DNA of 46,291 bases, counting the filler, from Streblomastix strix (lineage: Eukaryota), in assembly GCA_008636045.1 (NCBI GenBank). It is 2 parts of 2 records of this genome, joined end to end, with 100 filler letters (N's around TTAATTAATTAA, not from the genome) between each part and the next. Parts side by side here need not be neighbours in the genome. Positions count along the whole stretch, not along the records: positions 23,219 to 46,291 come from SNRW01000300.1; 1 more part is not named here. One strand, 5' to 3'. The position numbers and the translations under genes are program-made. Below the pieces are notes generated by a model, which was not told where the DNA came from, searched no databases, and saw nothing but the letters and a program-made list of their open reading frames with translations. Shown here piece after piece: positions 23,744-35,600 of this stretch. Numbering within the stretch: the first letter of the stretch is position 1; each line of letters starts with the position of its first letter.

Positions 23744-26700
23744 ATGAGCAAAGAACTTTGTTTGAATAAAAGCGAAAAAAGAGGCCAAGTTTCACTCATT
23801 AATTAAATTTTAAGTAATGTATTCTAAATATTTAGAACATAAAATAATAATTTAGATAAAGAAGAAATTCAAAGACTTACTAATATTGTAAAAGGATATG
23901 AAGATGACGCTTCTTGTTTTTTTGAATGTATAATGACTTTCTTTTGGTCGGAGACAATCGAATGAAGGTAAAACTGCAATTTTTTACTCTTTTTTTAAAT
24001 AATACACAATTTTTTATTATTATTTCAAATTATCAGAATATTTGCATTATAAGCACTTAACGAAGTAATTCATTTTTCTCCAGTAATATAAAGATTAGTA
24101 AGCTAAAACATAGGAACAATAATAGATTTATCTACAGGAATAAACCAATATTACTCTCTTCCAGGTCCGCATAACATTGCATAATCATTAAGCAAATAAT
24201 TTATTTATAATCTTGTTGATTGGTCTGATTAATACAGTGAATAGTTTCCTTTGCTATTTCATGCGCTTCGCTTTCTAAGCAGCCAAGGTATTACAATTCC
24301 AAATAAATAGCATAATGAAATTATTTAATAATAGAAAATGAAAAGATTACAAGCATTCCTTCTAAATGATTTAAGAAAGACATTGTAAATTATTTGTGAT
24401 ACAATAGATAGTTTGAATGTATAAATTAGCATTATAAATGATTTAATGAAAGAATTGTTTCCATATTCAATTGATAAATGGTTAAATTGTAATTAAAATG
24501 TATAGGATTAAAATTAAAGTGTAATTATTGGATAATAAATACAAAACGAAATTTCTTGTGTAAATAACTCTATTTTAGATATTGATATTCCTGATGTTGA
24601 AATTAATCTTTCATAAAATATTAACACTTTATCGTAGTTGAAAGCTCAATTATCAAACAGTTCCCAATTTAACCATAACAAAGAAATTATAATAGATTTA
24701 ATTAAGATTATTATTCGAACTGAAATGAAAATTTAAAAAATAGAAAATTAATCATTCAAAACTCATCTCATAAATACAAAAGAAGAACCATGTATTATTT
24801 AGAATTTAATTCCATAATTATACAAGAGATTTATCAGTATATCAAATCAATGTAACATTAGAGTAGCATTCAATTCTTGTTTTTGTTGGAAGTCTCTTGG
24901 TTTAGATAAATCTTATTCTGTTCTACCATAAACTATTACAAATGAATTGAAATTATTTATCGAGTCTGATGACATTGGTCATATAGATTATCATTCATTA
25001 AAAGAAGAAACTCTTTCTATTCCAAAAAAGATAATCATACACAATCAGAAAAATAATAAGACAACTTTAAATTTATCATAATAATCAAAAAATAATACAA
25101 ACAATAAATCAACAATTATATCAGATGAATAAATCCATTAATTTGAATTATTTATTTAAAGATTATAATTATTAGTTTCCAATACAATATAAATAATAAA
25201 TACTATTGAAAAATAAGTATAAATGCTTGATATTAATGTATATGAAATAATTATGAATGTGAATTAGGAAATTATATAACAAGATAAACTAACAATGGAA
25301 TAATTATAATAATAATAATCTAATATTATTAATTAATAATAATTAAGTATTTAATAAGATATTTTTTTACGTCATGCAGATATAACACATAAATAATAAT
25401 TAGAAGATTAACGTAATAAAGTAATGAAATTCTTTAATAAAGATTTAAATAATGATTAATAACTTATTTCCGATGAAATTATTAATAAATTAAATAAACA
25501 AATCTCAGATCCAACAGCTCCACCTTTAGGAATAAGTTTAATTGAAGAATTACATTAGCATAATAATATACCGATTCATTTATTAGATTAATTAATTGAG
25601 AATAATTATGCATTTGAATCAAATCATATGAAATCAATTAAAGACGAAATTTGAGGGGGGAATGTAGAATAGATTGAAGATTGAAGATATTAATCATCTT
25701 ATCATTAAATGCTACTTGAATCAATTCATTAAAATTCTCAAAGACGCAAATTATTGAGTGCTGAAGATTTATTATTATTAGAGGATAAAAAAAAAGAAAA
25801 TAATAATATTTAAACGTAAACAGATCCTCCTAAAGAATTAATTGAATATCACAAACGTCATGCTCCAATTATTTAGTTTGAATATGTACGTCCGCTTTCT
25901 GTTGCAGAATAAAAGAGAAATGAAAAAATTGAAAATGAATTTTAATAAACATAGGAATAAATCAAAAGTGGTGGTTTAATATTACCAAAAGACAGTCAAG
26001 GAATTGGAAAGAAAATATTTAATCTTGGAATTGAAAGAGTTCATAGATGGATGGGAAGTAGCGATAACGAAGATAACATTCGTGATTTTGATGATAAATG
26101 CGAGAATATTATTAATTATGATAAGGATAATGATGATTAAATCATTTCAAAGGATGTTGATGCTAAATTAGATAAATAAAGTTAAATAAATGAATTTCTT
26201 TCAAGATAAGATCCAAATGATATTTTGACTGAATGGAGAAAACAAAAAAGAAAAAAGAATGAGATCAGTGAAAATAAATCAAATAATAAAAGAAGGAGAG
26301 ATGAAGACTTTATATTTGATGATGAATCTGAATTTATTAATGCTGTTAATTCTTCTAATGTCAGATACTCAATAATTTAAGCACCAATTTCATCATCATC
26401 TAAATAGTAATTATCTTCATAAATAGACTCATCTATTTTATCATATAATCAAAATGAAGAAGATTTATATTCTTTAGATGAAGAAACATATTTAAAATAA
26501 TAATTTAAATTAAATTCAAACAAATTATCCGAATCTATTAAAGTTCAAGATTAATTATAATCTTCTTCTTCATCATCATCATCATCTTCTTCTTCTTCTT
26601 CTTCTATATAATAATATGAAAAATATAATTAATGCAATGATATTATATCTAACAATCCACTAAAAGAAGAAAATTCAACAATTTCTGTTAATTCTTAAAG

Positions 26701-27304
26701 GCTGAATTAACCAAATTCAAGCGAAATATTAATTGAATAGGACAATAACACTTTTAATCAATTATATCAAAATGATTCCTTTAAGATAATTGATAAATAT
26801 TCAGATTTTAAAAATGAAGAAAATGAAGAATAAAATTTTCAACCTATTTCATTTAATGGTTTTAACAATATTAATTTTGCATTTGATATTAGATAAAGAA
26901 TATAGTCTAGTATAATGGATTAAACTAATAATAATTCTAAATAGTAAAACATATTCCCTTCACATACACACTTATTTATTCCTTCTCCAAATTCGCCCAA
27001 ATAATAATAATCTTTTAATATACAAAATGAAGATCATGTAATCTAATAAACCATTCTTTCAAATTAACAATAAACAAATGCAAATACAAATTAAATGTCA
27101 AATATCTATATTTAAAAATAATCTACAAAATTGAAAAATAACAATTTTATAAAAGATAAGAAAGCACAGACATTATCTGGTCGTATAAGTCTTGCCTTTT
27201 CGCGAGTTTAAAAGTAGAATAGCAAACAGACCACTAATGCACAAATAGATTTTACTGAACCTGTAGATATTAATGGTAATTCAAATTCACGTCAAAATGT
27301 ATGA
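23744..27304 (+). CDS. UVSSA: UVSSA-like protein (intron 23968-24036; internal TGA at 23963, 25652, 25682)
   Basis: VHS-like N-terminus ...TIE*RIFALQALNEVIHFSPVIQRLVSQNIGTIIDLSTGINQYYSLPGPHNIAQSL...DWSDQY...LFHALRFL parallels UVSSA. Later motifs DPTA, APII and HRWM also fit. No frameshift seen over ~1150 codons; zinc finger not seen. Confidence 0.75.
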
Positions 27305-32449: not shown

Positions 32450-32600
32450 CGCCAAGTTTTTACAAACCCCTCTATGGAGCTTTTTCCTATATCCAAGCTT
32501 TGAATGAATTTGCTTCTAAATGCTATAAATCGTCCATTACAGATAAGCTGGAACTTTTTAATAGCCATTTCCATCCAATGCGTGCCATTATTTATTCAAA

Positions 32601-35600
32601 ATGTCGCACACGCTTGATTCATTGAAAGAAGAAAATGGTGGTGTGGTCATTTCCCTTATGCAACAAATAAAATAAAAATTTTATATTCACATACACAGGA
32701 GTTGTACCGTTATAGAAATTAATCCCTATTTTGAAAATCCTTCTTAAACACCTTGCAAGTCAACATAAAATTGGATTAGCTCTTAGAAACATTCATCCTC
32801 GCAACATTCTAATATCATCACAAGGAAATGTAGATATCTCAAACTTAGACAGCGGCAGTATGGCTTATTATTCGCCTGAAGTCATTTTTAAACTGGAACA
32901 GAATGAAAATGAAGATGTATTTACAGCTGAAAATGATATATGGTCGTTTGGATGTATTCTTTTTGAAATGGCTCTCGGATACATACCCCTTGCTGCGGAA
33001 TCGTACGATTCTCTTCTTCAATAAATCTTTGCGTGATTTGGAAACCCGACACGGAGTGATCTGAGATATTTAAATGATAGTCGTTTTAATCTATTGATAT
33101 TGAGAGACTATGTTTAACAACCACAATCTTGGTCTATCCTTCTTCGTGGTGATAAGCCAGCTGCATCAATCAGACCAGATAGTATCTTTGGACATATCCC
33201 ACATCGTGTTACTCCTCTTCTTTGTGATGTACTTCGTGGTGCACTTGAGTACAACCCATAGATGAGATCCAGTGCTCAATAACTGCTTCAAATGCCATTT
33301 TTTCACCTATCTTCTGATGAGCTTATTCCTCAATAAAATTCATCCTAAAAACCTTCACATATTTTATAATCTCCATCATCAGTTGCATTTAATATATAAA
33401 ATAGATCAATATCAACAATGGCACATAATGCACCTCAATATAATAGAATTAATAATAATCGATTCAATTAATAGAAACAACAAAATCTTTAATAAATAGG
33501 TTTATAGCCATATATTCTATATTAATAACCATAATATTTTCATAAACAAACTCATAGTCATAAAAAGAAACATAAAAGAAGTAGTGGAAGCTCATAAGGA
33601 AGCTCTAATTAATAAATGAATTTATAACAATATAATGAATATACAGAAGATAGTGAAGAAAGTACATGGGAAGATGAATGGACAAATGATATTTATAATA
33701 ATAATAATGAGAATATATTAAATTAACCAACAAATATATATCATAATAATAAAATTAATGATAATAATCAAAATTATTAAGAGTCTGAAGATATAGAAGA
33801 AGAGTTCTATGAAAGTATCCATAACAATAATATCAATAATAATATCAATAATAATATCAATAATAATATCAATAATAATATCAATAATAATATCAATAAT
33901 AATATCAATAATAATATCAGAAATATTGAAGATGGATCCATTATAGGTTGATTAGAGCGTGTTGGAGAAAGAGAACGTGGATAATCTCCAATTAATTAAA
34001 ATGAAAGATTCCTTACTTCTCCAATTCATAAATATAGCAATATAATTAATAATAATCTACTATAGAATGATAATAGAGAAAGAATATTAAGAAAAAGTAA
34101 TGGAAATTAATTTGTTAAAGATAGATTGATAAATTAAGATGACAAAAGATATGGAATTAGAAATAAGAGGAAAAGTAGTGAATATAATAATTTAGGAGAA
34201 TATCCATATTATAGTCCGTAACCATAAATAATTTAGGATTAAATATAATAATTATCAAGTTAATTATAACCATAAATTATTAATTCTTCAAACATTCTTA
34301 TGAATTAATAGCCGCAATTTATTCTTCAGCCTAATTAAAACAATCATATTATATATAATAATAATTATAAATAGCATCATAAGAAAAAGAAAAATATAAG
34401 AAGTTAAAGAAAAGTAGTTAATTAATAAAATTAACCTTCATTTACTACCGTTCCATTTTATTAGCCATATAATAATAATTAAATATAGTAGTAACAATTA
34501 CAAAATAGCATTTAACAGTAGAATAGATAAAGTTTTAATTCAGTCCATAAATTAGAAGATGAACAAGATATTTATTAGAATTATGAAATGTAATAAATTT
34601 CTGAAACGCCAAATCTTCATTAAATTAATTATAATAAACCAATAAATTAAGATTAAATGTAATTAATAAATAGAACTAATATAACACTGAGGACCTTAAA
34701 TGAATCTTAAAGCATAATTAAATCTGATTAATAATAATAATATTCTCCTCCTAAATCTCCCCCAATTTAACGTCCTTTTTCTTCTTTAAATTAACAATCA
34801 AATAAATAAATAAATTATGATGATGATAAAGCATAATTAATATCACAAACTACACCTATGACTGAATTTATAAAATTACATTAAATTATGCCATCTTCTA
34901 TTTAAACATAAAGAATTGTTAGGAATGATAAAAACATATTTTCCTAATAATTAATAAATCCAATTATGAATAAAGGTCCAAATATTAGAAATAGTTCACC
35001 ACCTTCTCCATAACCATCTCCTATATTAAATTAATAACCTTTATCAAGGGTTAAATAACATTCTCAATCAAATTATTAAATATAATAATTAAATAACAAT
35101 TAATAAAGATAATCTGGAATTAAAATACCTGAAAATAATATATAAAATATTAATAAGTTAAATAATTCACTTGAATTTATTTATACAGATGGTATAAAAA
35201 GAAATCCATTAATTAATACTAATAATGAACATTTAAATTTAAGAAATAATTAATAAATATTATAATCTCCATAAAAATAAATAAATGAAAAGTCTCTTTC
35301 TTCAAATTCAATGAAATTAAATAATACTTAATTTGATAATCATAATAACGAATATAATAACATTATTAAAAATTAATACTAAAATACATTATTGTTGTTA
35401 AAAGATGTTAATAAAGATTAAATTTTAAACAAAAACAAGAAGAACGATTAAAATGAAATTAAAAATGAATCAATTAATATTAATAATGATTTTATTAGTC
35501 AATCATAATTAATAACTCATAAGGATCAAACATAATCTCCCATTCGTGAATATTAGTTACTTAATCCTATTTAACAGAATTTAAATGGATAAACTCTACA

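Follow-up and report, generated by a model that had tools for sequence, protein, structure and literature searches.

Probable sense use of UGA inside two genes of Streblomastix strix, an organism in which UGA also ends genes

Genetic codes in which UGA stands both inside genes and at their ends have been described in several protists. The karyorelict code, as in Parduczia, is filed as table 27 (PMC4967479; 10.1101/2022.04.12.488043), and in-frame UGA has a frequency of 0.120% in Parduczia and 0.042% in C. magnum (PMC4967479). For Blastocrithidia, where UGA means Trp only, a tRNA-Trp with a 4-bp stem and an eRF1 with the change Ser74Gly have been described (PMC12153298). The published code of the oxymonad Streblomastix strix is table 6, with TAA and TAG (together TAR) for Gln, TGA at gene ends and short GT-AG introns (PMC13002328, PMC1501061, PMC11687900). 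Its 2026 inference, which gave TAR = Gln only, was built on alpha- and beta-tubulin (PMC13002328), from which a rare sense codon would escape detection. The present analysis concerns a stretch of 46,291 nucleotides (nt) of S. strix DNA, called the window, in which a UVSSA orthologue and a kinase-like gene together carry five in-frame TGAs. The window is like the published code in its TAA and TAG as Gln, its terminal TGAs and its short GT-AG introns, while the accessible text of those papers contains no sense UGA. It is argued that UGA is probably read as sense inside these genes and as stop at gene ends.

The window is AT-rich eukaryotic DNA (20-36% GC per kb), and its long reading frames appear only when TAA and TAG are taken as sense. 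That the source is S. strix or an organism like it, with TAA and TAG as sense, had been proposed in a sequence-only reading of this DNA and is supported by the relatives of a DNA polymerase encoded in the window: 29 of the 40 best matches are named Streblomastix strix, one of them 86% identical over 273 amino acids. In-frame TAA and TAG number 105 in the UVSSA gene and 161 in the kinase gene, where they occur inside spliced contigs and homologous blocks; Gln as their residue is taken from the S. strix literature (PMC13002328). The evidence comes from the window itself, from contigs of public sequencing runs (X1 to X6 below) and from protein records. The principal features are the following.

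23744..23967, plus strand: UVSSA exon 1 (74 codons and 2 nt), aligning to Monocercomonoides exilis MONOS_4052; in a spliced X2 contig with 0 differences.
23963..23965, plus strand: in-frame TGA 1, codon 74, inside the UVSSA N-terminal domain and 2 nt before the exon joint in the X2 contig.
23968..24036, plus strand: UVSSA intron, 69 nt, GT-AG, skipped in the X2 contig.
24037..27304, plus strand: UVSSA exon 2, with terminal TGA 27302-27304; Pfam UVSSA_N, E 3.7e-07.
25652..25654, plus strand: in-frame TGA 2, codon 614; in X4 contig 25543-25693, 0 differences.
25682..25684, plus strand: in-frame TGA 3, codon 624; in X4 contig 25543-25693 (0 differences) and X2 contig 25649-26003; column not alignable.
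32601..32640, plus strand: 3' part of the first coding exon of the pseudokinase, with a predicted start; an X2 contig reaches 32619 and runs on for seven letters to its end.
32641..32698, plus strand: pseudokinase intron, 58 nt, GT-AG, deduced from X2 record 14.
32699..36720, plus strand: pseudokinase main exon, with the kinase C-lobe, a long Q/N-rich tail and terminal TGA 36718-36720; Pfam Pkinase, E 3.5e-11.
33034..33036, plus strand: in-frame TGA 4, inside the kinase fold; in X2 record 14 and X1 record 6.
33949..33951, plus strand: in-frame TGA 5, 304 codons past TGA 33034; seen in the genomic reading frame only.

With TAA and TAG as Gln, the UVSSA orthologue (23744-23967 joined to 24037-27304) has 1,163 codons and no frameshift, and the reading-frame count upholds the three internal TGAs, at codons 74, 614 and 624, that the sequence-only reading had placed there. 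Two matches were returned when 1.84 billion representative proteins were searched with UVSSA, neither of them from S. strix; the good one is M. exilis MONOS_4052 (E 1e-16), which itself matches human UVSSA. A word-based homologue search with the N-terminus found no match among 923 candidates. Before codon 74, 17 of 48 residues (35%) are identical to M. exilis, and after it 49 of 149 (33%); the intron appears as a 23-residue gap in the alignment. Three further homologous blocks follow downstream in the same order, the last of which ends at most 3 residues from the M. exilis C-terminus, and from this agreement it follows that TGA 27302 is the true stop.

The kinase-like gene has TGAs 33034 and 33949 in frame, its terminal TGA at 36718 and no frameshift. 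The Pfam Pkinase match covers positions 103-263 of 263, so that the C-lobe is present and the N-lobe absent; the match spans TGA 33034, and the last subdomain lies after it. LRN stands where kinases have the HRD motif, and there is no DFG motif. The gene is thus a degenerate, C-lobe-only pseudokinase, spliced and transcribed, with a low-complexity tail of 1,100 residues; it may start at ATG 32523, which lies in the same frame. A word-based homologue search with the kinase domain found no match among 1,177 candidates and no oxymonad orthologue, nor did a language-model atlas return anything for the kinase; from the UVSSA and kinase genes, ten pieces of single exons were looked for in a protein collection, and 0 of 10 were present. 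The sequence-only reading had spoken of intact host genes and of a kinase frame running on past TGA 33034. The absence of frameshifts in both genes, the TGA and the subdomain behind it stand; the word intact needs a reservation for the pseudokinase, and the run is interrupted by the second TGA.

The runs that match the window come from termite guts or from coded organisms, and none is recorded as RNA; the contigs of X2 and X3 lack GT-AG introns, and on this ground both runs are taken to be RNA. X1 is possibly the source of the window and is not counted as independent evidence, while X4 belongs to a second study, with neighbouring pieces that differ from the window by 2-8 letters per 151-270. 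No contig of X5 or X6 matched 23700-26100, none of X3 lay over the TGA sites, and X4 had no clean piece over sites 1 and 4. Contigs lose rare variants, and their depth cannot rank expression.

In X2, a 1,058-nt contig passes directly from 23967 to 24037 with TGA 23963 in place, and shows 0 differences over 1,039 aligned letters. X2 record 14 has 845 nt, of which 818 match from 32698 (32698-33515) and the remainder reaches 32619; it is spliced and has 5 differences, all outside TGA 33034, while the single difference of X1 record 6 also lies elsewhere. The X2 differences imply that another haplotype carries, and splices, TGA 33034. In the second study, the X4 contig 25543-25693 leaves TGAs 25652 and 25682 unchanged; TGA 33949 lies outside the contigs matched in either contig comparison. 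The TGAs are thus found in spliced RNA at sites 1 and 4, that is at two of the five, and at both a hidden intron, an assembly error and dominant editing are excluded. S. strix has UPF1 (PMC1501061), and decay would be expected for a spliced mRNA that stopped at codon 74 with 3.3 kb still to follow; the presence of the UVSSA mRNA fits read-through.

At its 5' side the UVSSA transcript contig has a loose end with a 9-letter word that occurs once in the window, at 23301-23309, 418 nt upstream of 23728 and with no GT-AG ends between. A deletion haplotype, a template switch or an odd intron in the 5' untranslated region (UTR) is possible. The first letters of this 1,058-nt contig resemble a cDNA template-switch oligonucleotide.

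A membrane protein gene serves as control.

27913..32449, minus strand: membrane protein gene, 1,437 codons, 13 TGG, 0 internal TGA; introns 30744-30889 and 32078-32154.

All four modelled host genes end in TGA, and terminal TGAs are confirmed at 27302 (UVSSA), 27913, 36718, 41953 and 41811, in accordance with the claim of the sequence-only reading that TGA still ends genes (36718, 41811, 41953, 27913); its statement that TGG is also in use agrees with counts of 6, 4 and 13 in the three genes with Trp. Internal TGAs occur in two of the four fully modelled host genes, the other two having 0 in 1,437 and 0 in 1,397 codons, the latter in a gene with no Trp or Cys codon at all; the overall frequency is 5 in 5,350 codons (0.09%). 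In the UVSSA gene 3 in-frame TGAs are observed when 20.0 are expected from base composition, and in the kinase gene 2 when 20.3 are expected, a 7- to 10-fold depletion, while the two other frames hold 17 and 66 (UVSSA) and 17 and 59 (kinase). From this depletion relative to the other frames it follows that both frames are coding. The 13 TGG and 0 TGA of the membrane gene differ from the 5 TGA and 10 TGG of the two TGA genes with a post hoc Fisher p of 0.044; contig depth in X2 is 266 versus 4-22, which permits no ranking of expression. Behind its stop at 27913 the membrane gene has further in-frame TGAs after 4 and after 17 codons, which may be backstops. With regard to a possible depletion of sense UGA ahead of true stops, the closest of the five internal TGAs lies 1,620 nt from its stop. 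The next base after the five TGAs is A, G, A, T and T in turn, so that no single base is common to them. The pseudokinase (32523-33330) and the membrane gene stand head to head, about 75-150 nt apart.

In the two TGA genes together there are five internal TGAs and 0 frameshifts in 2,516 codons (7.5 kb). Frameshift-free genes, homology on both sides of a TGA and TGA at true gene ends together mean that TGA probably works in both places. The chief alternative, rather unlikely in our judgement, is that these are transcribed pseudogenes or fixed null alleles in which UGA is a plain stop, as in table 6, and each TGA would be a nonsense mutation. Such decay would explain why the TGAs stand at non-Trp columns and why the polymorphism of the UVSSA gene looks relaxed (below); the kinase is already degenerate, a CBP20-like 3' fragment follows the UVSSA stop directly and hints at a rearrangement of the locus, and the description of S. 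strix gives TAR = Gln only (PMC13002328). What speaks against it is above all the five nonsense changes without a frameshift. Under neutral decay, about 156 and 95 substitutions would be needed for 3 and 2 TGAs, an expectation that depends on mutation rates estimated here from the unpolarised X4 spectrum of single-nucleotide polymorphisms (SNPs), yet these 7.5 kb of repeat-rich DNA carry no frameshift. The decayed polymerase of the window has 2 frameshifts and 0 in-frame TGAs in 1,155 codons (post hoc Fisher p 0.048 against five TGAs and 0 frameshifts). Among 35 complete S. strix polymerase records, read by hand, 9 have clean in-frame ends, about 12 natural ends and about 12-14 divergent tails, and from about 9 clean ends as compared with about 12 divergent tails the chance of five nonsense changes and no frameshift is about 0.015. 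Decay further predicts that 54-64% of the TGAs derive from Gln codons; neither alignable site is a Gln column, and the Gln-rich kinase tail has 0 TGA in 922 codons. Conservation is equal on both sides of TGA 1, and two TGAs are common to the window and the second study. No intact allele or paralogue was found in X2 at UVSSA exons 1-2, where contigs may have lost rare variants, and no S. strix paralogue among the 1.84 billion representatives, in which proteins like those of the window may not be listed.

Three other explanations have to be considered, each of them far less probable than decay. It is very improbable that the TGAs are lost or altered in RNA, be it through editing, through alternative splicing or in introns that went unnoticed, or that they stem from errors of assembly. 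A phase-compatible donor at 23947 and other GT-AG pairs exist around site 1, sites 2, 3 and 5 are not in contigs that also span a splice joint, and X2 has unlisted differences near site 2. Spliced contigs nevertheless retain TGAs 1 and 4; use of donor 23947 would recreate a TGA, just as the sequence-only reading had noticed; none of the 4, 2, 17 and 3 phase-compatible GT/GC-AG pairs that would remove sites 2-5 is intron-like; and at the places checked, X1, X2 and X4 have the letters of the window. Insertion of selenocysteine through a selenocysteine insertion sequence (SECIS) has still less to recommend it. Oxymonads are reported to make selenocysteine (PMC10703272), and Cys-like residues outscore Trp at the aligned columns. 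Those columns, however, hold no Cys (Ser/Ile; Val/Ile/Leu), and there is no SECIS among the 2 Rfam matches at E <=1 in 23250-46291. To our knowledge, neither UVSSA nor the pseudokinase is a known selenoprotein. Equally remote is the idea that UGA always stops and that separate pieces arise by re-initiation, for which in-frame ATGs are available after the TGAs at 24338, 25709, 33262 and 34300: TGAs 1 and 4 cut folded domains, and codons 75-175, which would be bypassed, are as conserved as the rest.

Sense use of UGA has to be set against observations that weigh in the other direction. The evidence comes from two genes only, chosen for their internal TGAs, which gives the 0.09% and the two Fisher tests a post hoc character. 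The SNPs of the UVSSA gene are synonymous in 8 of 24 cases (neutral 24%, p 0.21), with a ratio of nonsynonymous to synonymous polymorphism (pN/pS) of 0.64, and this pattern is not different from neutral; the control membrane gene has 14 of 24 (pN/pS 0.21) and the kinase 3 of 6, where pN/pS rests on the SNPs listed (40 of 126). X2 contigs 25499-25678 and 25649-26003 each have one unlisted end difference that could fall in TGA 25652. Single contigs with depth below 4 also show length changes: in X2 one nt is inserted at 25361, and in X4 two nt are deleted at 25157. The membrane-gene transcript extends, in X2, to 27768, at least 145 nt past the first terminal TGA and at least 94 nt past the last in-frame TGA; the short 3' UTRs that the sequence-only reading had named as something to look for are not seen in the sole gene with a lower bound (94-145 nt). 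Internal UGA faces a Trp column at 0 of the 2 alignable host sites. With all this taken into account, UGA as sense inside genes and as stop at their ends is still the reading to which we incline, with considerable room for doubt.

Which residue would UGA then encode? The column at site 1 has Ser in M. exilis and Ile in human UVSSA, and that at site 4 has Val, Val, Ile, Leu and Ile in the five best PDB matches. A Leu column in M. exilis at site 2 is not significant, since 116 of 500 shuffles reach its score, and was dropped as evidence. Four Trp columns are common with M. exilis in all three alignments, and all four are TGG. The BLOSUM62 score at the aligned columns is -1 for Cys compared with -2 to -3 for Trp, while the Pfam Pkinase scores at site 4 (W 54.8, C 55.6, R 55.7 bits) do not discriminate. 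The sequence-only reading had taken internal UGA to be probably Trp, and this is not supported here, in a small sample that leans against it: neither alignable site faces Trp, and the robust Trp columns are all TGG. Of its ambiguous code there remain the TGAs in spliced RNA and termination at TGA; that the code is genome-wide is something we infer.

Further information comes from the 35 complete S. strix polymerase records, in which the 9 clean ends precede Trp 3 times, Cys 3 times and Gly, Gln and Arg once each, in a count that sets aside 5 natural C-termini and 1 frameshift tail flagged by script, is made without 11 records from other organisms, and keeps apart 25 'partial' records (19 clean ends: 1 Trp, 1 Cys). 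Trp and Cys together account for 6 of 9, compared with 26% expected from mutation alone (13% Trp, 13% Cys; 33% Gln; p 0.013), and two clean ends stop at the same Trp column in polymerase copies that are only 79% identical. This gives a hint, not proof, that third-position changes from TGN to TGA may be tolerated; it counts against leaning on these ends that they are protein records without DNA, from decaying mobile elements. In yeast, near-cognate read-through of UGA gives 86% W, 7% C and 7% R (as cited in PMC4967479), and from this and from convergence Trp retains its prior. At the aligned columns, Cys or mixed Trp/Cys decoding would fit at least as well as Trp. Given sense use, Trp comes close to an even chance, Cys is possible with clearly lower probability, and a mixture of Trp, Cys and Arg is somewhat less likely again.

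A mechanism can be envisaged as follows. The release factor eRF1, already relaxed for UAA and UAG as Gln, would also compete weakly at UGA, and internal UGA would be read at low frequency, in some genes, by a near-cognate tRNA (Trp or Cys), which would allow full-length UVSSA and pseudokinase proteins to be produced. Internal UGA would cost yield or fidelity, and would hence be excluded from abundant proteins and conserved Trp positions and be tolerated at variable ones; such avoidance would follow whether the cost is a mixed residue or reduced yield, and the 13 TGG and 0 TGA of the membrane gene are in line with it. Proximity to poly(A) as the stop signal, as in Condylostoma, is doubtful here. 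No tRNA gene is present in the window. In its full form, with no dedicated stop codon, with internal UGA as Cys or a Trp/Cys mixture at variable positions only and with termination that does not depend on a very short 3' UTR, the proposal is tentative.

If it is true, this would be the first ambiguous code in metamonads and in a eukaryote without mitochondria, a living ambiguous intermediate of independent origin in another supergroup, codes in which each of the stop codons may also have a sense meaning being known so far from ciliates, Blastocrithidia and one Amoebophrya strain. Oxymonads lack mitochondria (PMC10703272), and this removes one candidate source of a UGA-reading tRNA discussed by Swart et al. 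(PMC4967479). Relatives with the standard code and sequenced genomes (Monocercomonoides, Blattamonas) would make changes in eRF1 and tRNA readable by comparison. Annotation by table 6 would cut genes at internal TGAs, which bears on claims of gene absence in S. strix.

The remaining features of the window are described here, beginning with those next to the genes above.

27398-27748, plus strand: 3'-half gene fragment with a 58-nt intron (27478-27535), beginning about 95 nt past the UVSSA stop.
36960..36962, minus strand: candidate for a sixth internal TGA, unverified; 75 open codons separate it from TGA 36734-36736, and it may be a plain stop.
12204-17137, minus strand: Polinton-type DNA polymerase with at least 2 confirmed frameshifts; control part 12246..15719 (1,155 codons, 0 TGA).

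The fragment, which we take to be CBP20-like, has no Pfam match. An X2 contig matches it from 27398, yet its 5' part is different and coding-looking, and the break has no splice acceptor. The junction present in the window is spanned by an X1 contig; a rearranged or duplicated copy or a chimera is possible. The membrane-gene transcript that reaches 27768 comes within 19 nt of the fragment stop, and the 3' UTRs of these convergent genes probably overlap. The kinase stop at 36720 and the opposite-strand TGA 36734 are 13 nt apart. TGAs at 40736-40740 and 41697-41700 were not counted as internal codons, as they probably belong, judging from sequence, to splice donors (GTTTGA 40735, GTGTGA 41695). 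An inverted repeat of 108 nt (96%; 45273-45380 and 46184-46291) at the window end is possibly an amplification fold-back, in which case the 5' end of the gene ending at 41953 may be artefactual.

Bases 1-17100 look like a decayed Polinton-type endogenous element with TAA and TAG as sense. Besides the polymerase there are a frame at 5300-6330 (minus), presumably packaging-ATPase-like, and one at 9492-11440 that we take to be a probable capsid gene; copies of a repeat of about 50 nt lie at 5219, 11445 and 16560 and, inverted, near 6720 and 11998. Fragment 17129-17700 (plus), with one in-frame TGA at 17434, resembles what we take to be the RNase H region of a DIRS retroelement. An inverted repeat of 141 nt (89%) lies in 16661-17071 at the element edge, and an intergenic direct repeat of 144 nt (88%) at 20681-20824 and 22935-23078. 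A metagenome scan for more host DNA gave 1 locus only, L001; its bases 1-3813 were rejected as host DNA, being a GC-rich DIRS-type element of another organism with long frames free of TAA and TAG. A viral-contig collection gave no further host DNA, by protein or by DIRS-type motif.

How, then, does this locus compare with the described codes? The accessible full-text literature contains no report of sense UGA in oxymonads, though a mention may exist in the S. strix genome paper, the 2003 code paper, their supplements or subscription papers; neither 'in-frame' nor 'stop codon' occurs in the searched text of the 11 supplementary files of PMC10703272, and Cys-or-stop UGA together with UAR = Gln was not found in the literature accessible. 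As in table 27, UAA and UAG are sense, UGA occurs at gene ends and inside genes at about 0.1% of codons, and UGG is in use; the 0.09% of the window lies between the frequencies of C. magnum and Parduczia. Unlike in table 27, where UGA faces Trp columns, 0 of 2 alignable sites do so here. The median 3' UTR is 21-23 nt in heterotrichs and about 10 nt more in karyorelicts, whereas the one bounded here has at least 94-145 nt, and S. strix belongs to a different supergroup from these ciliates and lacks mitochondria. Since Trp is not supported and the 3' UTR is not short in the one gene with a bound, the code of the window is not filed under table 27. Amoebophrya sp. ex Karlodinium veneficum, a non-ciliate, offers a sequence-inferred parallel in which UAR is Gln and UGA may be sense or stop; there, Trp is the aligned residue for 72-83% of internal UGAs, which it is not for the two sites here, and this again tells against the present interpretation (PMC6394959). 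Blastocrithidia (table 31) is similar in having all three stops in frame and in avoiding reassigned codons in highly expressed genes, and differs in that UAR is Glu, UGA is Trp only (0.72-0.85% of codons) and UAA is the stop (PMC12153298). Finally, the UGA = Cys of Euplotes is a likeness in that Cys suits aliphatic and Ser columns better than Trp does and that 3 of the 9 clean polymerase ends precede Cys; in Euplotes, however, UAA and UAG stay stops and UGA never terminates (PMC10089648), while in the window UGA ends all four modelled host genes.

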